A DNA stretch of 64,000 nucleotides from Escherichia phage PMBT57: sequence record MG770228.1, one strand, 5' to 3'. The stretch's first letter is position 1. Every line of letters begins with the position of its first letter. The position numbers and the translations under genes are program-made. Below the pieces are notes generated by a model. The model saw only the letters and a list, made by a program, of their open reading frames with translations. It had not been told where the DNA came from and did no database searches. This document shows, piece by piece, positions 8,338-63,259 of the stretch.

Positions 8338-8455
8338 CCTAATGTGTGGGATGTAACAGTTAAATCCAGTTGCCGGAAGTGCAATTCTAGATACGCTGCC
8401 AATGTGTGAACGGTAAGGCTGTACAGGACTCGGACTCCCATCCCACCTCCTTATT

Positions 8456-8552
8456 TGAACCAGGTATGAACGGCTTACTTAGTATTAACTGCATAGGGGT
8501 ATGTTAGGGATACTTAGGTGGTAAGCAGTTGGTAAGAATCCAACATGGTTCA
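8456..8552 (+). pseudogene. possible decayed or interrupted tRNA-like relic
   Basis: A 7-bp acceptor-like stem TGAACCA/TGGTTCA (8456-62 / 8546-52) has an adjacent 5-bp/7-nt-loop arm GTTGG-TAAGAAT-CCAAC (8528-44). There is no CCA, and I could not fold a convincing D or anticodon arm. Confidence 0.25.
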
Positions 8553-8698
8553 TTCCCTATTAGCAGTAACATAGTCCTGAGTACGTGTGCTCTAAAGACA
8601 ATATTGGTGAGACAGTCCAATAGCTGCTAAATTAAATTCGTCCATTCCTCTTGGATGTGTAGCGAGTGAAGGTAACACTTAAAAATCCATGACCCATA

Positions 8699-8730
8699 GA
8701 AGCCTCCAGGATTAACTGGAGGCTTTTTTA
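8699..8730 (+). terminator. intrinsic terminator closing the tRNA/ncRNA locus
   Basis: AGCCTCCAG (8701-09) pairs with CTGGAGGCT (8716-24), followed by T6. Confidence 0.8.
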
Positions 8731-8752
8731 TTTAATTAAATAAGGAAGCAAG

Positions 8753-9124
8753 ATGAACCGTATTACTGAAGAACATATTGATAGCATCATTGAAGGTGTT
8801 TACTACTTCAATATGGCTAAAGCTGTAGAGAATGAAGCAGTTCTGATTCCTGAAGACCATTTAAAAGCATTGAGTACAACTACTGTTTGTGCACTGGTTA
8901 TTTCTAATGGGTTCACTATTACTGGTAAATCTGCTTGTGTTGACCCTAATACCTTCAATGAGGAGTTAGGTAAGAAATATGCTTACGAACAGGCCATTGA
9001 TAAGGTATGGGAATTGGAAGGCTATCTGCTTAAGCAAAACCTGTATGAGAAAGCTCAGAGCCAGGAAATGCTAAAAGGATTCCTGCAAGATGACAACTGT
9101 GAAGGTGGGGGCTGTAAAATCTAA
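8753..9124 (+). CDS. hypothetical protein (N4 gp48 position)
   Basis: 123 aa with an AAGGAAG RBS. The segment TGKSACVDPNTFNEELGKKYAYEQAIDKVWELEGYLL resembles the conserved phage N4-gp49/Sf6-gp66-type family as I recall it; unverified. Confidence 0.75.
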   Translation: MNRITEEHIDSIIEGVYYFNMAKAVENEAVLIPEDHLKALSTTTVCALVISNGFTITGKSACVDPNTFNEELGKKYAYEQAIDKVWELEGYLLKQNLYEKAQSQEMLKGFLQDDNCEGGGCKI

Positions 9125-9609
9125 TGGAAATTAAAGTTCACTTTACTAATTACATCGGAACCAAATGTGTAAATGGTTTCCCGATGAACAAGGCTGCCTA
9201 CTGCAAACTTCGTGGTTGGGATGTACCTACTAATGAAGACCAGTTAGAAGAGGGTTACTTAGTAGAGTACCCCGATTCTAAACCTAACCATGAACAATTT
9301 CGTGGTTATATTAGCTGGTCACCTAAAGCTGCATTTGAAGAGGCATACTGTGATGTGGACAAAGGCTGCACGTTTGGCCACGCAGTAGAGCTTATGAAAT
9401 CAGGTTTTAGAATGTCCCGTAAGGGCTGGAATGGAAAAGGAATGTATATCACATTGGTATCCGGTGAAAACTGGGCTATGGATAAACATGAAAATACCGT
9501 ATGCATGAAACGGGATTGGCTGGGTATTAAAACCGCTGACAATGAATTTATGCCCTGGGTTCCATCTCAATCAGATGTATTAGCAGAAGATTGGGTACTA
9601 GCTCAGTAA
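9124..9609 (+). CDS. two-domain protein with a C-terminal DUF2829 (Tad2-like) domain (N4 gp49 position)
   Basis: 161 aa with a TAATG overlap upstream. The C-terminal ~80 aa (FGHAVELMKSGFRMSRKGWNGKGMYITL...WVPSQSDVLAEDWVL) matches the DUF2829 hallmark pattern (GWNGKGMY... DxLAEDW). Confidence 0.75.
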   Translation: MEIKVHFTNYIGTKCVNGFPMNKAAYCKLRGWDVPTNEDQLEEGYLVEYPDSKPNHEQFRGYISWSPKAAFEEAYCDVDKGCTFGHAVELMKSGFRMSRKGWNGKGMYITLVSGENWAMDKHENTVCMKRDWLGIKTADNEFMPWVPSQSDVLAEDWVLAQ

Positions 9610-9610
9610 G

Positions 9611-9642
9611 AAATAAAGCCCCTCTAGTGAGGGGCATTTTTT
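9611..9642. terminator. bidirectional intrinsic terminator between convergent genes
   Basis: GCCCCTC (9618-24), TAGT loop, GAGGGGC (9629-35). Flanked by AAATAAA on the left and ATTTTTT on the right. It sits between the + gene ending at 9609 and the vRNAP stop at 9644. Confidence 0.8.
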
Positions 9643-9643
9643 A

Positions 9644-12600
9644 TTAGTGGGTAAGGTTGAACCAAGGGTTGAGGGTAGGTGCTCTTAGTCCTTGTCCGAA
9701 GCCTAATGAGTAATCCAGTCTTCCTTCAGCCAGCATGGTTAGCATGTTGTCCTGAATTGGCAGACCTACATTACCAAACATGGCAGGAGCAGGTACTACT
9801 GTAGCAATCAGAGAATGTACTGGGTTGTTTCTAATCATGCTCATAGCAACTTTAATGGAACGAATCTTAAAGTTGTAGAACCACATCAGACCCACGCTTT
9901 CCATATAACCACGGAAACGACCAGGCAATCTGTCATAGTTAACAAACTCTTCAGTTACCTGACCCAATGCTTCAGAAGAGGATTTCTTCTTACGTTTCAC
10001 TAAATCATCATAGATGATGGCTTTAGCAATGAAGTCTGAATACTCTACTGTTTTCTGGATACCCTGGAACAGAGCAGTGTCCTTAGCAATAAGAGCATAA
10101 CGGCCAGCATTACGTACTTTTTCTGGAAGTTTATTAGCAAGTTTTTCCATGTACTCATAAATCTTACCTTCAGCTACTAACAGGTCATCACGACTAATAC
10201 CAGCATCAGCAATAGAAGAGAACTCACCTGCTTCAATCAAAGGCCAGATGCTCATACGACGATGGCTATCAGTAATAGATTGAATCTCGGTTTTAAGTTT
10301 ACGAACCAGATTAGGATTGCCTTCAGCAGCACGTAATTCTGCTTCTGCATCAATCTGACGTAAGCGAGATTTAATGTACTGATTAATCTCTGACGCCTTA
10401 CGAGGAATATTCACAGCAATATCCTTAACAGGAACACCACGTCCAATCATCTGGTAGATGTTAGCAAGGAAGTTAACTGCCGGTACTACAACAGATTTAA
10501 CAACAATTACTGTCTTAGCATCCTTCACCAAGTTCTGAATGGTATTTTCAGCATTCATTACTACATGATATGCCTTATTACCAAATGCACCGAGGAACAT
10601 CTTCTTAACAGTATCAAGGGTGCTAGGTGACCAACGAGAGTTACCAGTCCATACATCACCAATAGATGCAGCACGATAGCCAAGTGCATCATTCAGCATA
10701 TCCCTACGAACCCATAACTCATCCTTACCAAAGAGTTCTTCAGCCTTACGACGAGTCTCAATGTTCATTAGGTTAATTGCATCAGCCAGTACTGGGTCAT
10801 CAATTTTACCTAACAGGTTTACATATTGAGATTTATTAGCACTGGAGTCTTTAATGTCTTTCTCATACATAGCATGTAATTGCTCAATGAGAATGTCATT
10901 AAAACGTTGTGCTTTAGCCTCTTCCACCTGACGACCACGCCATACACCCACCATCTTAGCAAAATGATTGTCTTGGTTTAGATGCTTCAACATATTAGGG
11001 TCAACGGATTGCTCATAAGCAACTACCTGACCTTTGCTGTTATAAATTGGCATCAGTGGTTCACGCCCACGTTCACCTTTAGCCAGAGCTTTGGTAATAC
11101 GCTCTACGGTTGGTTTGTCAGTAATACGACCAGCAACCATAGTACCTAACGTAAAGCCAGTACCAATATCCACGCCACCAGCAGTATTACGAACGTTCTG
11201 AAGAATACCTTGAGAGTATGGAGCACGGGCAGCTACTGGGCTGAAGTAATAACCTTTAGAACCAGTACGGAAACCAGTGCTTCCCTGATAAGTACCAATA
11301 CGAGTAAAAGATTGGCTATTTAACTTAGCAAACTCTTTATCGTCAGCAATAATCAAATTCACACCTTGCTGGTTCTCTACAGGGATATAGCCCTTAAAGT
11401 GATTCAGCAGAGTACGATTATCGCCTTTAGCTTTACGCATCTCTTCAGTACGTTGACCCACCATATAAGCAATGGAGAACTCCATACCTTCCACTTCTGA
11501 TTGAGCCAATTCTGACAAAAGGTCACGGTCAGACTTATTCATCAATTCCAGAGAGTACAAAGTAGTGAGCTTATCAATAGCAGCTACATCTGCCACAGGA
11601 CTATTAGTAATACGTTCACCTAACAAACGACTAATAGCATGGGCATTACGAAGGAGGTTATTACCTACTTCTCCTGTAATCATGTATTGAGCCAGTTGCT
11701 TAGATTTCTTCTGAACCAGATTCCAGTTTCTACCTGCTTGGTTCTGAATCTCTTTTTCCAGAGTAGAGATTTCATCTTTCACTTTCTTGGATGAAGAGAG
11801 TAAATCTCTAATTTCAGCCATGCTCATAGTTTCACGTAGAACAGCTAAATCTGTTTTACCTAAACCAGTATGCATTGCAGACCACTCGGTATCAGTCAAT
11901 TTACGAGAGAACTTACCAGCAATGACTGTAGGTAAATGCTCACGGAATTGTTGACGGTCTTGAGAAATCTGGCTCTTAACCAATTTGATTAAGTCATAGA
12001 CATTGGCATTAGTCTTAGTACGACCAACAATGTCATTAACTAAGTCATGGAAAGGTTGCCATACTTTACCCTGGTTCATAGCAGTCATAACACCCTGAGC
12101 CACTATTTCACCTTGTTTTTCAGATGCAATAGCAGCAGTCAGTTTAGCCAGATGAGCAACACCTTTAGCAGCTACATTAGAAGGGTTAGCAATTACCTTA
12201 TCTGCCTTTTCAATAACAGTTTCAGATAACCGTTCAATGCTATCCGTTACGTACTGATTAGCACGGTCAATGAAGTTACCGGTAGGGGTTGCTACAGCAT
12301 CATAGAAGGACTCTCGTTTCAGAGCAGCAGCCATGATTGTTTCTGACAGAGCATCAATACTATCCTGAACATTAGTAGCCTTCTGGTCACCCGCCATACG
12401 ACGGTTCAGAGATTCCATTACCTGAGTACCTGCATTGGTAAGCAGAGTATCTACATCATTCCCTAATTTCTTATCTGCTTTAGGTACAGGCATTTCTTTA
12501 ATGATTGAACGTAGTTCTTCATTAACCATAGCCAGACCCAGGAATGTAGGTAACAGACTGGTTCTGCCTTTGGCATCTACTTCAACCAGATTAGCACCAG

Positions 12601-55211: not shown

Positions 55212-56270
55212 ATGGCTAGTATTGATTCTATTGCCGTATGTAATCCACGGCAGGTACGTAAATTTGTTGAACACTGTATCCGTTCAGGATTGGTTCCATT
55301 TATCACTTCATCTCCTGGTATGGGTAAATCTGCAATTGTTCATCAGATTGCAGAAGACTTTGGTCTGAAACTGATTGACCATCGTCTGTCTACTTCAGCA
55401 CCAGAAGACCTGTCAGGTCTGCCGCGTTTTAAAGAAAATGGTCGTGCTGAATTTGCTCCATTTGATGAGCTATTCCCACTGGAAGGGGATACTGTACCTG
55501 AAGGATTTAATGGCTGGCTCCTTTTTCTCGATGAGTTTAACTCTGCTCGTAAAGAGATTCAGGCTGCTGCTTATAAACTGGTACTCGACCGTATGACTGG
55601 TCAGAAGAAGCTACATCCTTATGTAGCTATCGTATGTGCTGGTAACAAAGCAACTGACCGTGCCATTACTAATAACCTGTCTACAGCTATGCAATCACGC
55701 CTTATTCATCTGGAAATGGAGACTGATTTTGATGTCTTTATGGAAGATGTAGCTATCCCTAACAAGTGGGATGAACGTGTAATTGCATTCCTGAATGCTA
55801 ACCCAAATAAACTGAATGATTTTGAACCAGACCATCAAGAGAAGACTTTCTGTTGTTCTCGTACATGGGAGTTCGTTAACAAGATTGTTTCCATTCTCCC
55901 ACCGGGACCGATTGATAGTGAAATGACTCTGCTGTTAGCAGGCACTATCACCTCTGGTGTAGCAACATCATTCGTCCAGTTTACTCAGGTCTATAGCAAC
56001 ATGGTGTCTTTGAATGAGATTTTGGATAATCCTAAGAAAGCTCGTATGCCTGAAGACAATAACCTGTTGTGGGCTGTAGTCACTTCACTAATTAACAATA
56101 CTGACGAAGATAATCATTCGAAAATCTTTGATTACGTTGAACGTATGCCGTTTACGTTCAAGGTTTTGTACTACCGTTCTGTAGGTAGTTTGGTTCCAGC
56201 TTTGGTTAAATTACCAAACTGGCGTGTTGCTGCAATCACATTATCTAAATACGTTCATGGTTCCAATTAA
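55212..56270 (+). CDS. MoxR-like AAA+ ATPase
   Basis: 352 aa. Walker A SSPGMGKS, Walker B LLFLDEFN, and sensor-like VCAGNKATD. Confidence 0.8.
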   Translation: MASIDSIAVCNPRQVRKFVEHCIRSGLVPFITSSPGMGKSAIVHQIAEDFGLKLIDHRLSTSAPEDLSGLPRFKENGRAEFAPFDELFPLEGDTVPEGFNGWLLFLDEFNSARKEIQAAAYKLVLDRMTGQKKLHPYVAIVCAGNKATDRAITNNLSTAMQSRLIHLEMETDFDVFMEDVAIPNKWDERVIAFLNANPNKLNDFEPDHQEKTFCCSRTWEFVNKIVSILPPGPIDSEMTLLLAGTITSGVATSFVQFTQVYSNMVSLNEILDNPKKARMPEDNNLLWAVVTSLINNTDEDNHSKIFDYVERMPFTFKVLYYRSVGSLVPALVKLPNWRVAAITLSKYVHGSN

Positions 56271-56436
56271 CAAGAAAGGAGTTACAGACCTCCTGTATGT
56301 TGCTGGCTTTAACGGTGAAGAAATTACCGTATATGCCCCAAGTCTGGCTGCTGCTAAACAAAAGGCAGTTGAATACTTTCGTCCAAAGAAACGTGTAGCC
56401 CATACTATTTGGGTTCATCTCGCAGAGGAAAACTGA
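56257..56436 (+). CDS. small hypothetical protein between the ATPase and VWA genes
   Basis: 59 aa from the ATG at 56257 (the track gives a GTG at 56224). It overlaps the ATPase 3' end, and its stop is adjacent to the next start. Confidence 0.5.
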   Translation: MVPINKKGVTDLLYVAGFNGEEITVYAPSLAAAKQKAVEYFRPKKRVAHTIWVHLAEEN

Positions 56437-56437
56437 T

Positions 56438-57580
56438 ATGTCCATGACAGATGCTCAATTAACCCGTGAATATGACAGATGTCAGGCTAAAGCCTTTATG
56501 GGCAAAACTGCTGCATTCTTTGGTTCACTGTTATGTTCTCTGAAGTTCCGTTGGGTAAAAGATGGCTGTGATACAGCACAAACCGATGGTGAGCATCTCG
56601 AATGGAATCCTGATTGGTTTGAGAGTCTATTACCTGAATCTCGTGTAACAGTACTCATGCATGAACTATGGCATGTCGGCTTACTGCATTCTGTTCGTAT
56701 GGGTTCTCGTGACCCAGAAGTATGGAATTATGCCTGTGATATTTATATCAACAATCAGCTTATTCAGGATGGCTACAGCTTTATAGGAATCGAAAATTGC
56801 TGGAAAGACCCTAAGTATGCTGGTTGGGCTGAAGAACAAATCTATGATGACCTCATGAGCAAACAGATACGTCCTCCTAAAGCATCAGGTGCTTTTGGGA
56901 CTGGCTCAGGTGGTGACATGAAACCTTCCACTTCGAAGGCTAGTCAGGTGAATATTGTCAATAATGTAGTAAGAGCCATGCACCAACAGAAACTATCTGG
57001 TGGTTCTTTGCCTGGGGTATTACCTGGAAAAATGGAAGAAGTTATTACTCAATTCCTGAAACCAGTAGTACCGTGGCAGGTTTTACTTGAACGCTTCTTC
57101 AATGACCTGCAAGAAACTTACTACTCATGGCAACGGCCTAATCGTAGATACCCTGATATGTACCTACCATCCCCTATGGATGATGACGGTAGACTGGAAC
57201 ATCTGGCTTATTTCCTCGATACATCTGGCTCCATTAAACCTAAAGATGCTTTACGCTTTAGCTCTGAAGTGGCCTATGTAAAAGAGAAATATCAGCCTCA
57301 GAAGATGACTCTAGTTCAGTTCACTACAGAGATTGTAGATGAACAAGTCATTGAAGATGGTGATAAGTTTACTGATGTCACTATCAAAGGACGGGGTGGT
57401 ACTAGTCTGGTTCCTGTACGTGAGTGGATTATTAAGCATAAGCCTACTGCTGCCATTATCTTTACTGACTTAGAAGTCAGACCGATGGAACCATTGCCAT
57501 TTGATATTCCTGTCATATGGGTAGTTATTCGTAACCCTGGTGCACAAGTTCCATTTGGGAAAGTTATTAACATTACATGA
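56438..57580 (+). CDS. VWA-domain protein with an N-terminal metallopeptidase-like HExxH domain (DUF2201-type partner of MoxR)
   Basis: 380 aa. Contains VLMHELWHVGLLH (HExxH) and a MIDAS-like FLDTSGS (DxSxS). Confidence 0.8.
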   Translation: MSMTDAQLTREYDRCQAKAFMGKTAAFFGSLLCSLKFRWVKDGCDTAQTDGEHLEWNPDWFESLLPESRVTVLMHELWHVGLLHSVRMGSRDPEVWNYACDIYINNQLIQDGYSFIGIENCWKDPKYAGWAEEQIYDDLMSKQIRPPKASGAFGTGSGGDMKPSTSKASQVNIVNNVVRAMHQQKLSGGSLPGVLPGKMEEVITQFLKPVVPWQVLLERFFNDLQETYYSWQRPNRRYPDMYLPSPMDDDGRLEHLAYFLDTSGSIKPKDALRFSSEVAYVKEKYQPQKMTLVQFTTEIVDEQVIEDGDKFTDVTIKGRGGTSLVPVREWIIKHKPTAAIIFTDLEVRPMEPLPFDIPVIWVVIRNPGAQVPFGKVINIT

Positions 57581-58382: not shown

Positions 58383-58405
58383 GCCCACTTTATGTGGGCT
58401 TTTTT
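58383..58405 (+). terminator. intrinsic terminator (second of a tandem pair)
   Basis: GCCCAC-TTTAT-GTGGGC followed by TTTTTT. Confidence 0.8.
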
Positions 58406-60733: not shown

Positions 60734-63259
60734 ATGCAAGTAGCTGACTCTACTGAACTGACCACATCAGCAACGTTGGGTGCTCAAGATGCTATGGCCT
60801 TCGGTATTTCTGAAGACCCAGCATTCTTCCAAATACTCAGTGCTAACCTCTATTCTAATCAGAAACTGGCAATGGTACGTGAGACATTGTGCAATAGCTG
60901 GGATGCTCATATTGAGGGGAATAAAACAGATATTCCTATCCATGTAACCATTGATAAAGATGGTTTCCTTATCTTCCGTGACTATGGTTCTGGTATTCCT
61001 AAAGATAAGATTCAAGAGGTCTATGGGGTATATGGTGCATCTACCAAGAAAGCTAATACTGCTTCCACCGGTGGCTTTGGCTTAGGATGTAAATCCCCTA
61101 TGGCCTATACAGACAGTTTTACTGTCACATCTATGTGTGACGGAACCAAGACTGTCTATCACATTGCTAAATCTTCTGTTGAGACTAACGGTAAACCAGG
61201 GATTATTCCTATCGTTAGCGTACCTACTGAAGAATCCGGGCTTGAAGTTAAAATTCAGCTTCAGTCAGAAGATATTTTAGAAATTGATTCATATATTCGA
61301 GCCATTGTATTACATGGTGAGATTAAATGTATTTACTGCAATCAGTATACAGGACCAAATACAGTAGAATTACTGCCTGTACTGGGTATGTCTTTTGAAC
61401 CAGGTAGCTATAACCTAGACCATAGCACATGGCATAAATATTACATGGGCAGTCATTCAATATTTATCCGTTATGGTAATGTTATGTACCCTGCTTTGGA
61501 TACCCCTGCTACACATGAAGCATTAAAACTGGTTAAACAGTTTATGCAGGTTATTAACTGTAGCCGTATCGTTGTTCAAGCTGCCCCATCATCACTAGCT
61601 GTAGCACCTAGCCGTGAAACACTGTCATCTCAAAAAATGACCGAAGACGGTATCGTAAATTTGGCTGTAGCTTTAGTAGATAAAATGGAAGCAGATATTA
61701 AAGCTCGTCTTCCAAATGCTATTGAATATATTGGAAAAGCTATTAAAGAATATAGTCCTCACCGTTTTGAAGTAAATAGTTATTTGCCTTACACCAATTT
61801 AGTGCCTGATGTTATTGTCAGTCGTTATATGTCCTCTACTTTATTCAGTAAGCAATATGCTCATCTGTGTAAGAAATGGGGGAATATGGAAATTGACCGT
61901 CAACTAGAACATCCTGCACTGGCTCATTTCTCTGGTTCTCAAAAAGCCCATCTCCGTAAGCATTTAAAGAGGGCTAAGGATTTACGTAATTACAGGGAAT
62001 TAACTAAAGTATTTACTGATATGGCTATTAAGCCGATGTTCAAAACCTTTGCTAAATTAGGGATTACTAAAGGTATTTCTCTATTTCACTATCAATATGG
62101 TGTTGAACTGTGGCGTAATAATATTGTTAATAGTGTCCGTAGAATACACTCATTAAACTTCATGACTTATAGTTCTAAGAAGTGCCGTGTATTTGTTACC
62201 CCACGTATTACCAATATTGAAGATAGTCTGGCTGGGTATCCAGAGTTTGATAATCTTTCTACTGAGACACTGGTGAAATATAACTCAATCATTGTCAAAG
62301 TTGGAACCAAGAAAGGTGAAGCAGAGGCTATGACTAATCTGCTCACTAAAGCAGGATACGAAGTCACTAATATGGCTGAGTATCATGAGTGGGATTGTAT
62401 AGCTCGCAGACGTAAAGAGGAACAAGAGGCTAAATTAGCCATTTCCAAATTACAAGCTAAGAAAGCTACTAATAAGAAAAAGGTTAGTCCTAATCGTCTT
62501 ATTAGTATGAATATCCTTGAAATACCAAAAGAGCATCGTAGCTATTCGAGTGAAGTATGTGGTTCTCACTACGCTTCTCGTTCTCATGACCGAATGGTTG
62601 ATGTAGATACTCCCCAGTATTACATCATGCAGGAAGATATTAATAACTACACAGGAAGGCTTGGTGTTCTTTCTATGTGGCAATTAACCCCTGCTACCAT
62701 TAAAGATGTGACTGTTGTTTGTCGTAATAAAATTGAACGTAATAAAGCTATTAAGCGAGGTGCTGTTCATTTGGATGAATGGACTGCTCCGTATATTGCT
62801 TCAGTTCTTACATCCAAACAATTCATTAAGTATGTCACTAAAGAACGTCAGAAAACGTTAAGTGATATTGGTATTTACTCCAAACACCTCAGATTACTGA
62901 GAGAACTAGATATTACATATGCCCCATTGAAAGGTCTGCGTTATGACCCAGAACTGGAGAATGCTTATCTCTTCTTACAAAGTAGTAGCTACCCTAAGCT
63001 ACGTGCATTGTTAGGGAAGGGTCTGATTACTGAAGAAGAGTATCACTTCCTCAGTGATGTTGATGTGCATTGCAAGACTTTCAGTAAGTACTCGGAACTT
63101 CGTAGGATACCGAAGATGTTCCTTGATATTGATGCTGGGGGTTATATGTTGGCTGCATGTACTGTAGACACATTGCTTCGTGAAATCGAACAATTCCCTG
63201 AATCAATCCCTGCAATCAAACTGCTTGTAAAAGCTGCTCTTAAACGGAATACAGACTGA
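60734..63259 (+). CDS. rIIA: rIIA-like protein (N-terminal GHKL/Bergerat ATPase fold)
   Basis: 841 aa. N-box-like ETLCNSWDAH, G1 DYGSGI and G2 GGFGLG. The large size and pairing with a downstream coupled gene match phage rIIA/rIIB. Confidence 0.7.
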   Translation: MQVADSTELTTSATLGAQDAMAFGISEDPAFFQILSANLYSNQKLAMVRETLCNSWDAHIEGNKTDIPIHVTIDKDGFLIFRDYGSGIPKDKIQEVYGVYGASTKKANTASTGGFGLGCKSPMAYTDSFTVTSMCDGTKTVYHIAKSSVETNGKPGIIPIVSVPTEESGLEVKIQLQSEDILEIDSYIRAIVLHGEIKCIYCNQYTGPNTVELLPVLGMSFEPGSYNLDHSTWHKYYMGSHSIFIRYGNVMYPALDTPATHEALKLVKQFMQVINCSRIVVQAAPSSLAVAPSRETLSSQKMTEDGIVNLAVALVDKMEADIKARLPNAIEYIGKAIKEYSPHRFEVNSYLPYTNLVPDVIVSRYMSSTLFSKQYAHLCKKWGNMEIDRQLEHPALAHFSGSQKAHLRKHLKRAKDLRNYRELTKVFTDMAIKPMFKTFAKLGITKGISLFHYQYGVELWRNNIVNSVRRIHSLNFMTYSSKKCRVFVTPRITNIEDSLAGYPEFDNLSTETLVKYNSIIVKVGTKKGEAEAMTNLLTKAGYEVTNMAEYHEWDCIARRRKEEQEAKLAISKLQAKKATNKKKVSPNRLISMNILEIPKEHRSYSSEVCGSHYASRSHDRMVDVDTPQYYIMQEDINNYTGRLGVLSMWQLTPATIKDVTVVCRNKIERNKAIKRGAVHLDEWTAPYIASVLTSKQFIKYVTKERQKTLSDIGIYSKHLRLLRELDITYAPLKGLRYDPELENAYLFLQSSSYPKLRALLGKGLITEEEYHFLSDVDVHCKTFSKYSELRRIPKMFLDIDAGGYMLAACTVDTLLREIEQFPESIPAIKLLVKAALKRNTD

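Follow-up and report, generated by a model that had tools for sequence, protein, structure and literature searches.

The window, a stretch of 64,000 nucleotides from Escherichia phage PMBT57 (MG770228.1), contains three consecutive open reading frames on its plus strand between positions 55212 and 57580. The locus is that of an Enquatrovirus, with 97.9% DNA identity to phage N4 and 99.7% to vB_Eco_Jura, and the three frames are N4 gp24, an intervening small ORF left without annotation in N4, and N4 gp25 (99.2% protein identity). Gene order and neighbours around gp24 and gp25 match those of N4, and nothing of substance differs between the present locus and that of N4; the 59-residue ORF lacks annotation in the N4 records but has it in sister genomes. 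The gp25 of Bas69 (AlfredRasser) is identical. The pair is already catalogued: gp24 (AAA ATPase) and gp25 (vWFA) belong to the 14 genes that make up the core of N4-like phages (Zhao 2009, PMC2784036; Chan 2014, PMC4193335), and Iyer et al. (2021, PMC7824862) had reported a combination of an ATPase with a metallopeptidase-vWA protein from jumbo phages; the present locus re-describes known genes. Antisense ORFs at the locus were treated as spurious, because strongly supported sense genes overlap them, and the region holds no tRNA, Rfam family or meaningful repeat. None of the three proteins has a match in NCBIfam or in PADLOC, the latter being a library of defence, not counter-defence, proteins. 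A preliminary description of the same DNA had located the three ORFs and four motifs correctly, and its two principal domain assignments are borne out.

The first gene (55212..56270, plus strand) encodes an orthologue of N4 gp24, a 352-residue AAA+ ATPase of the MoxR/AAA_5 clade in which a ~170-residue AAA core precedes an all-helical C-terminal region of about 180 residues that has no Pfam match. In the Walker A motif or P-loop, SSPGMGKS (residues 33-40, with GMGKS at 36-40; 55308..55331, plus strand), Gly38, Lys39 and Ser40 are invariant among 30 close homologues, and GK[ST] is kept in all 92 distinct homologues covering the site. In the Walker B motif, LLFLDE (residues 103-108, with LFLDE at 104-108; 55518..55535, plus strand), Asp107 is present in 93 of 93 homologues and Glu108 in 91, being replaced by Asp in the remaining two. 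The sensor-1 residue Asn145 and Arg163, which complete the MoxR-type set of motifs, are invariant in the 30 close and in about 93 diverse homologues. A helix-2 insert would be compatible with the conserved RLSTSAPEDLSGLP segment and with an insertion, modelled at low confidence, at residues 61-90. The protein scores below the Pfam gathering cutoffs, with 19.3 bits for AAA_5 (cutoff 22) and 19.6 bits for AAA (cutoff 21.2); a single-sequence search of the PDB gave no match, and in a profile search midasin was the sole one. Its nearest structures are dynein and midasin modules, with CbbQ and NorQ ranking just below, and they fall in the MoxR/midasin/dynein group and not in other AAA+ clades. gp24 is thus structurally a MoxR/midasin/dynein-like ATPase, as its earlier assignment to the MoxR type had it.

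The third gene (56438..57580, plus strand) encodes the orthologue of N4 gp25, a 380-residue protein whose AF2 model has a pLDDT of 81. The preliminary description had read it as a fusion of an HExxH domain with a MIDAS-bearing VWA domain, which agrees with its Pfam matches to PF13203 (DUF2201_N; 1.3e-86, 291 bits where the cutoff is 23.2), the zincin-like part, and PF09967 (DUF2201; 1.4e-46). We found no literature on the function of DUF2201, and no report of a peptidase assay on any member. The HNH endonuclease label that gp25 carries in RefSeq and PHROG stems from phrog_1314 and was rejected, as Pfam shows only the two DUF2201 domains and no HNH. Conservation of the HExxH and MIDAS residues, complete among the 30 close homologues, is nearly so among 111 distinct ones. 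In the HExxHxxxxH metal site, HELWHVGLLH (56660..56689, plus strand), His75 is kept in 109 of 109 sequences, His79 in 110 of 110 and His84 in 108 of 110; His84 and the nearly invariant Asp101 (110/110) are both candidates for the third metal ligand. The catalytic Glu76 is kept in 103 of 109, including all phage copies that cover the motif; its loss is confined to chromosomal copies of Campylobacterota, in which the His ligands stay. Proteolysis is therefore probably not universal across the family. The VWA domain (residues 256-380; 57203..57577, plus strand) has the expected alpha/beta fold and a complete MIDAS, DTSGS (57218-57232, plus strand) plus Thr322 and Asp344; Asp261, Ser263, Ser265 and Thr322 are invariant wherever covered and Asp344 is found in 95 of 102 sequences. 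Sequence and profile searches of the PDB gave no match for gp25. Foldseek against the PDB returned VWA domains only, and no solved peptidase for the N-terminal zincin-like domain; the hits of gp25 include the VWA domains of NorD and BchD.

Whether the three genes travel together across Schitoviridae had been raised by the preliminary description, which treated them as a triad. The ATPase and VWA genes do so: they are coupled, as same-strand neighbours, at 93 of 95 informative phage and bacterial loci. The 59-residue ORF between them (56257..56436, plus strand; phrog_19202 at 2e-33) does not. It is annotated in vB_Eco_AL25, has no Pfam match, overlaps gp24 by 14 nucleotides and ends in a TGA just 1 nucleotide before the ATG of gp25, which is preceded by GAGGA. 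An obligate three-gene system, with the small protein acting as adaptor, regulator or substrate of the ATPase and the VWA protein, would account for this tight packing and for homologues of the small ORF being found invariably in this intergenic slot; it is nevertheless very improbable, given that syntenic homologues are found at 6 of 46 N4-like loci and at none of 47 distant ones (40/46 and 47/47 lack them), that the large genes lie no more than 60 nucleotides apart at 30 of the 46, and that unrelated genes fill the slot in other phage lineages. The family comprises just 12 clusters among 5.8 billion proteins. The small ORF is a real but lineage-restricted gene, outside the conserved module. 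In another phage clade the between-gene protein is 218 residues long; a link to DNA modification through this protein was rejected, its Nmad5 match being too weak (22.2 bits where the cutoff is 27).

Terminator-like hairpins flank the pair: one upstream (54373..54395, plus strand), with a 9-bp stem followed by a T-run, and one downstream, past gp27 (58383..58399, plus strand), at a position whose counterpart in vB_Eco_AL25 carries an annotated terminator. They are the probable 5' and 3' boundaries of a transcription unit, gp21-gp27, that includes the pair. The pair lies in a middle-gene module for replication and nucleotide metabolism; a dCTP deaminase gene is probably co-transcribed with it and ThyX is encoded nearby. 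This location bears on the function proposed for group 2.2 jumbo phages, which have the same two-protein architecture of a MoxR AAA+ ATPase and a metallopeptidase-vWA protein. Their authors suggested virion assembly by analogy to the MoxR-vWA system of Acidianus two-tailed virus (Iyer et al. 2021, PMC7824862), so that the pair would act as chaperone and processing protease, folding, assembling or trimming structural proteins. An archaeal phage-tail assembly system is among the MoxR-vWA precedents (Kaur et al. 2020, PMC7159879), a "second structural module" lies near the gp24 and gp25 homologues of roseophage RPP1 (Chan 2014, PMC4193335), and no prohead protease turned up in the examined part of the window. 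By tblastn, jumbo-phage homologues of gp25 include those of PBECO4, Paride and Atu_ph07, the jumbo-phage copies being just ~22-28% identical to the present proteins. However, the gene context here disfavours an assembly role: the pair is away from the late structural genes, and the 25 neighbour families that recur most often at 21 divergent phage loci include no structural one. Nor is either protein among the named N4 virion proteins, gps 52, 54, 56, 59 and 67 (Chan 2014, PMC4193335). Taking these observations with the insertion data given below for distant homologues, we regard virion assembly as improbable.

Pfam, NCBIfam and PDB searches place neither protein, at the sequence level, within the cellular MoxR-VWA systems. 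In CbbQ-CbbO, NorQ-NorD, RavA-ViaA, BchI-BchD and midasin (which has its own MIDAS), the VWA partner lacks an HExxH domain, unlike gp25, and the helical C-terminal region of gp24 is unrelated to these systems. Several of them nevertheless suggest a second function, insertion of a metal cofactor or activation of an enzyme, in which the pair would mature or reactivate a phage or host metalloenzyme as CbbQ-CbbO does for Rubisco and NorQ-NorD for NO reductase, or in the manner of CoxD-CoxE and CobS-CobT; the HExxH motif would then handle metal instead of cutting protein, and the clients might be enzymes of nucleotide metabolism, replication or transcription. The positions of CbbQ and NorQ among the structures nearest to gp24, and the NorD and BchD matches of gp25, are consistent with this, as is a weak match of gp24 to phrog_249 ("porphyrin biosynthesis"), presumably a CobS-like family. 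So are the Campylobacterota homologues, which retain all metal ligands without the catalytic Glu, and the vicinity of the dCTP deaminase and ThyX genes, although neither enzyme is known to need such a chaperone. We nonetheless consider cofactor insertion improbable: no client gene is consistently linked to the pair across phage and bacterial loci, the catalytic Glu, needless for metal delivery, is conserved in every phage copy in which it can be seen, and the phenotype of the homologues described next is host-specific, not general.

In their core of MoxR and vWA proteins, the vWA-MoxR-VMAP conflict systems also resemble the present pair, and their vWA component is sometimes fused to a peptidase, rarely a metallopeptidase (Kaur et al. 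2020, PMC7159879). These are host systems, whereas the pair is phage-encoded and outside any host defence island; assignment to the ternary system was rejected, there being no VMAP or effector, a non-conserved 59-residue ORF as third gene and a blank PADLOC result. A chaperone or remodelling role, or one in conflict, is plausible for the pair, and the conflict role is favoured, indirectly, by data on distant homologues in Bas54 (Escherichia phage MaxBurger), a Vequintavirus in which the MoxR ATPase bas54_0063 is required against the defence system DS-28 (10.1101/2025.11.20.689424). bas54_0063 matches the gp24 profile (E 4e-32, profile positions 28-283) and shares with gp24 the motifs RLSxxxPxDLSGLP and PR(S/T)W; the gp25 homologue is bas54_0055 (E 3.4e-27). 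In both phages the pair lies in early/middle-type regions with rIIA/rIIB near, but the two Bas54 genes are non-adjacent, 3.6 kb apart and on opposite strands, while they are neighbours here. The Bas54 proteins are much diverged from gp24 and gp25 (about 20% identity) and the phenotype is shown for Bas54 alone.

According to the HIDEN-SEQ data for Bas54 on K-12, insertions are tolerated at 94% of TA sites in both homologues, which are thus dispensable there; Bas54 infectious particles therefore form without them. On isolate CFE311, a carrier of DS-28, both are depleted. For the metallopeptidase-VWA gene this depletion is only modest, on a wild isolate that differs in many other ways, and while the ATPase is a validated DS-28 factor, the authors draw no DS-28 link for its partner (10.1101/2025.11.20.689424). 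Essentiality data on N4-like phages themselves were not found in CRISPRi-ART, two phage transposon-mutagenesis studies or HIDEN-SEQ. The transposon data favour a role that is specific to certain hosts, and possibly directed against defence, over virion assembly, and linking the N4 pair to these distant homologues argues against the published assembly proposal.

The reading we prefer, with slightly less than even confidence, is that gp24 and gp25 form a zinc protease or remodeller that is driven by ATP, targeted through the MIDAS and directed at a host target, with the small ORF as an optional passenger. The two proteins would be produced in the middle phase of infection and would assemble into a two-component machine, in which gp24, presumably ring-forming, is the MoxR-type motor and gp25 its VWA co-factor. 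The MIDAS of gp25 would grip an acidic residue on the target protein, ATP hydrolysis by gp24 would supply a pulling or activating force, and the N-terminal HExxH zinc domain may cleave the target or process it in another way; an invariant RPNRR loop (residues 233-237) might enter the pore of the ring. The target would most likely be a host protein that needs to be gone in some hosts only, as in counter-defence or host takeover, and not a virion component. A bolder version, which we think unlikely, is that the pair constitutes a widespread counter-defence machine of Schitoviridae, Vequintavirinae, jumbo phages and cyanophages, a MIDAS-guided and ATP-powered metalloprotease that would seek out an immune component of the host, such as DS-28, and destroy or dismantle it. 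The pair is two of the few genes common to all N4-like phages, and core-gene status of this kind is unusual for anti-defence genes, which suggests a more basic role. Homology ties the N4 pair to two Bas54 genes that gain importance on a DS-28 host; if the counter-defence reading were true, a conserved core-gene system acting through targeted, ATP-dependent proteolysis could emerge as a new anti-defence mechanism.

Relatives of the pair occur in more than 21,000 protein clusters, and 681 cultured phage genomes carry them. At bacterial loci the pair is surrounded by unrelated housekeeping genes; a third ORF of ~235 residues, without a Pfam match, is common to the Campylobacterota loci.

The three open reading frames of the preliminary description are all present on the plus strand and are closely packed in the ORF list of the window. 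The gp24 orthologue (55212-56270, 352 amino acids) is preceded by a GGAG ribosome-binding site 8 nt upstream. The small ORF (56257-56436) encodes 59 amino acids counted from its ATG (70 in the mechanical ORF list, with a GTG start at 56224) and overlaps the 3' end of gp24 by 14 nt. The gp25 orthologue (56438-57580, 380 amino acids) starts one base past the TGA of the small ORF, with GAGGA upstream. The locus is 99.7% identical to that of Escherichia phage vB_Eco_Jura and 97.9% to that of phage N4; the first and third frames are the already known N4 gp24 and gp25. The original N4 record words them as 'similar to S. coel. protein 1' and 'protein 2', and the small ORF lacks annotation in both N4 records, while being annotated in vB_Eco_AL25. 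The N4 pair was described by Zhao 2009 (PMC2784036), and Chan 2014 (PMC4193335) counted both genes in the 14-gene core of N4-like phages, function unknown, and described them as middle transcripts in N4. For the same two-protein architecture in group 2.2 jumbo phages, virion assembly with peptidolytic processing was proposed by analogy with Acidianus two-tailed virus (Iyer 2021, PMC7824862). Neither the observation nor its domain reading is therefore new. The RefSeq label 'HNH endonuclease' for gp25, taken from PHROG 1314, is wrong, as the protein has no HNH domain; the label is common on gp25 homologues in many RefSeq phage records, including N4 itself (NC_008720 gp24, gp25; locus L001, 4213-6581).

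Terminator-like hairpins at 54373-54395 and 58383-58399, on the 5' and 3' sides respectively, probably flank one transcription unit consisting of gp21, gp22 (HNH), gp23, gp24, the small ORF, gp25, gp26 (dCTP deaminase) and gp27. Between 52800 and 60800, 15 such hairpins are found against 4.9 expected from shuffled sequence (about three-fold enrichment) and sigma-70-like promoters are depleted (11 against 22 expected), which fits transcription of these genes by a phage polymerase. The gp24-gp25 region contains no tRNA, Rfam family or meaningful repeat. Within the probable unit, gp22 (54655-55011) is a homing-type endonuclease of the HNH_3 family; gp20 (53530-54366) is an SPFH/Band-7 lipoprotein-like protein (Pfam 1.7e-23).

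All four motifs lie where the preliminary description had placed them. In gp24, GMGKS occupies residues 36-40 and LFLDEFN residues 104-110. The protein is slightly under the Pfam cutoffs for AAA_5 and AAA, has no match in NCBIfam and, in a profile search of the PDB, matches midasin (E 1.3e-3), which makes it a divergent ATPase of the MoxR/AAA_5 clade. Walker A, Walker B, the sensor-1 residue Asn145, Arg163 and Arg217 are invariant among about 93 homologues. Its C-terminal part, of around 180 residues, is entirely helical and matches no Pfam family.

Gp25 consists of a DUF2201_N domain ('putative metallopeptidase domain', 1.3e-86) followed by a DUF2201 domain ('VWA-like domain', 1.4e-46), with HELWH at residues 75-79 and FLDTSGS at 259-265. 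An AlphaFold model from 30 homologues (pLDDT 81) gave only VWA matches in Foldseek, and no solved relative of the N-terminal domain was detected by sequence or whole-chain fold search, so that its assignment as a putative peptidase depends on the Pfam model and the motif. The preliminary description named a lack of conservation of the HExxH or MIDAS residues as something that would refute it, and these residues are clearly kept. In 30 close homologues (51-86% identity), His75, Glu76, His79, His84, Asp101, Asp261, Ser263, Gly264, Ser265, Thr322 and Asp344 are invariant. In a wider set of 111 distinct homologues, which takes in bacteria, Vequintavirus and further phage lineages, the histidine ligands and Asp101 are near-invariant, and the MIDAS residues Asp261, Ser263, Ser265 and Thr322 do not change wherever covered. 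Glu76 is kept by 103 of 109 sequences; the remaining six, with Ile, Thr or Val in its place, coincide with the six copies on Campylobacterota chromosomes (loci L020, L023, L025, L029, L030 and L031), which keep the metal ligands, lack the catalytic base and look like a cellular branch of the family that is not proteolytic. Downstream of the pair, three of these loci (L029, L020 and L023) share an extra ORF of about 235 amino acids that matches no Pfam family. Another family-wide hallmark is the invariant RPNRR (residues 233-237, nt 57134-57148), which falls in the linker that joins the zincin-like domain to the VWA domain and is modelled with low confidence. The motif may act as a pore-docking loop or mark a site of processing.

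Relatives of gp25 were collected from 29 genome and 80 viral loci (104 distinct), 95 of which have enough flank to judge, and ATPase and small-ORF homologues were placed in them by profile searches. A gp24-like ATPase is on the same strand as the gp25 relative in 93 of the 95 and upstream of it in 91, with overlapping reading frames in 22 loci. This coupling is seen in N4-like phages, other phage clades and bacterial chromosomal contigs, for example from Aliarcobacter (1.78 Mb contig), Sulfuricurvum and Spirosoma; the gap is 60 nt or less in 30 of the 46 close N4-like loci. The small ORF, in contrast, has a homologue in just 6 of these 46 and, by profile search, in 0 of 47 distant loci, and its family comprises only 12 clusters in 5.8 billion proteins. 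The conserved unit is thus the gp24-gp25 pair: the domain calls of the preliminary description stand, but its triad does not, as only the ATPase and VWA genes travel together. The same distribution makes an obligate three-gene system very improbable. Where present, the small ORF occupies the slot between gp24 and gp25 every time; it is a real gene and an optional passenger. In other phage clades, unrelated genes fill this slot: a 218-residue protein ('MKTVRLS...') in 15 loci among L085-L110 (e.g. L085:4288-4950), which matches Nmad5 below threshold (22.2 bits, cutoff 27), and a protein of about 300 residues in 6 loci among L080-L094 (e.g. L080:4062-4949).

In the window, the pair neighbours dCTP deaminase, ThyX, HNH endonuclease and rIIA genes. 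In 21 divergent phage loci, the top neighbour families are DNA polymerase A, Dda-like helicase, N4-type RNA polymerase, exonuclease, ThyX, dNMP kinase and HNH, and capsid, portal and tail families are absent from the 25 most frequent in either library; as many of these loci are Schitoviridae-like, the counts partly reflect inherited synteny and are less than fully independent. Both N4 (rIIA at 60734-63259 of the window) and the unrelated Vequintavirus Bas54, Escherichia phage MaxBurger (rIIA at 8356-10338 of its locus, L116), have rIIA/rIIB within a few kb downstream of the gene for the MoxR ATPase, which may be coincidence.

Bas54 encodes homologues of both partners: bas54_0063, a 'MoxR ATPase' (E 4e-32 with gp24; common motifs RLSxxxPxDLSGLP and PR(S/T)W), and bas54_0055, a 'putative metallopeptidase' (E 3.4e-27 with gp25). 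Unlike in N4, they are 3.6 kb apart on opposite strands. In the HIDEN-SEQ preprint (10.1101/2025.11.20.689424), bas54_0063 was specifically needed against DS-28, a predicted defence system carried by E. coli CFE311. Both genes are 'Non-essential' on K-12 (TA sites hit 60/64 for bas54_0063 and 81/86 for bas54_0055; supplement of the same preprint). They are two of the 27 significant genes in the comparison of K-12 with the '311' library, both depleted, with log2FC -7.23 (adjusted p 0) for bas54_0063 and -2.20 (adjusted p 0.009) for bas54_0055; the sheet concerned (supplementary file 9, 'Data S6') is titled 'resampling_K-12_vs_CFE303', yet its TRANSIT command sets the BW library against '311'. 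These data point to a host-conditional role of the two partners and argue against a general virion-assembly role, at least in Bas54. Virion assembly and processing, as Iyer 2021 proposed, is an unlikely explanation of the N4 pair. The HIDEN-SEQ authors discussed only the ATPase, leaving the depletion of bas54_0055 without comment. The Bas54 link, this co-depletion included, offers a concrete test of the function of the pair.

Established MoxR-VWA systems engage their target at an acidic residue with the MIDAS, and remodelling by the AAA+ ring proceeds via the VWA adaptor. CbbQO, NorQD and midasin were found as structural neighbours. From this precedent and the conserved HExxH site, we propose that gp24 and gp25 would form a zinc protease or remodeller that is driven by ATP and targeted by its MIDAS, produced in the middle phase and acting on a host protein important only in some hosts; we give this slightly less than an even chance. 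The domain identities, the conserved residues, the genomic coupling and the module context are shown by the data above; that the two proteins form a complex, that they cleave a protein and what kind of target they act on are inferred. Against this proposal, the pair is a core gene set in all N4-like phages, unusual for anti-defence genes, the Bas54 homologues are distant and the effect on bas54_0055 is modest. The pair might instead insert a metal cofactor or activate an enzyme, which the similarity to CbbQ/NorQ and the Campylobacterota copies would support; we consider this improbable.

At 50% clustering, the gp25 profile matches 21,649 representatives at E <= 1e-3 and 5,150 at E <= 1e-30, and tblastn places gp25 relatives in 681 genomes of cultured phages, among them Schitoviridae, Vequintavirus (rV5-like) and Campylobacter phages, the jumbo phages PBECO4, Paride, Atu_ph07 and XaC1, and cyanophage S-TIM66. 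An N4-like block of gp24, gp25 and dCTP deaminase is present in the isolate genome of Mesorhizobium yinganensis CN2-181 (NZ_JBEBMH010000002.1: 434974-448110, locus L006), on a 727-kb contig on which two housekeeping genes, ribBA and aroC, lie about 1.6 kb away. The block may represent a Schitoviridae-like element, integrated or defective, or else a misassembly. Schitoviridae are regarded as strictly lytic, so an integrated element, if true, would be unexpected. A 296-kb contig of a Roseococcus MAG (locus L005) carries an N4-like block of an RNA polymerase II subunit, gp24, the small ORF, gp25, dCTP deaminase, ligase and ThyX.
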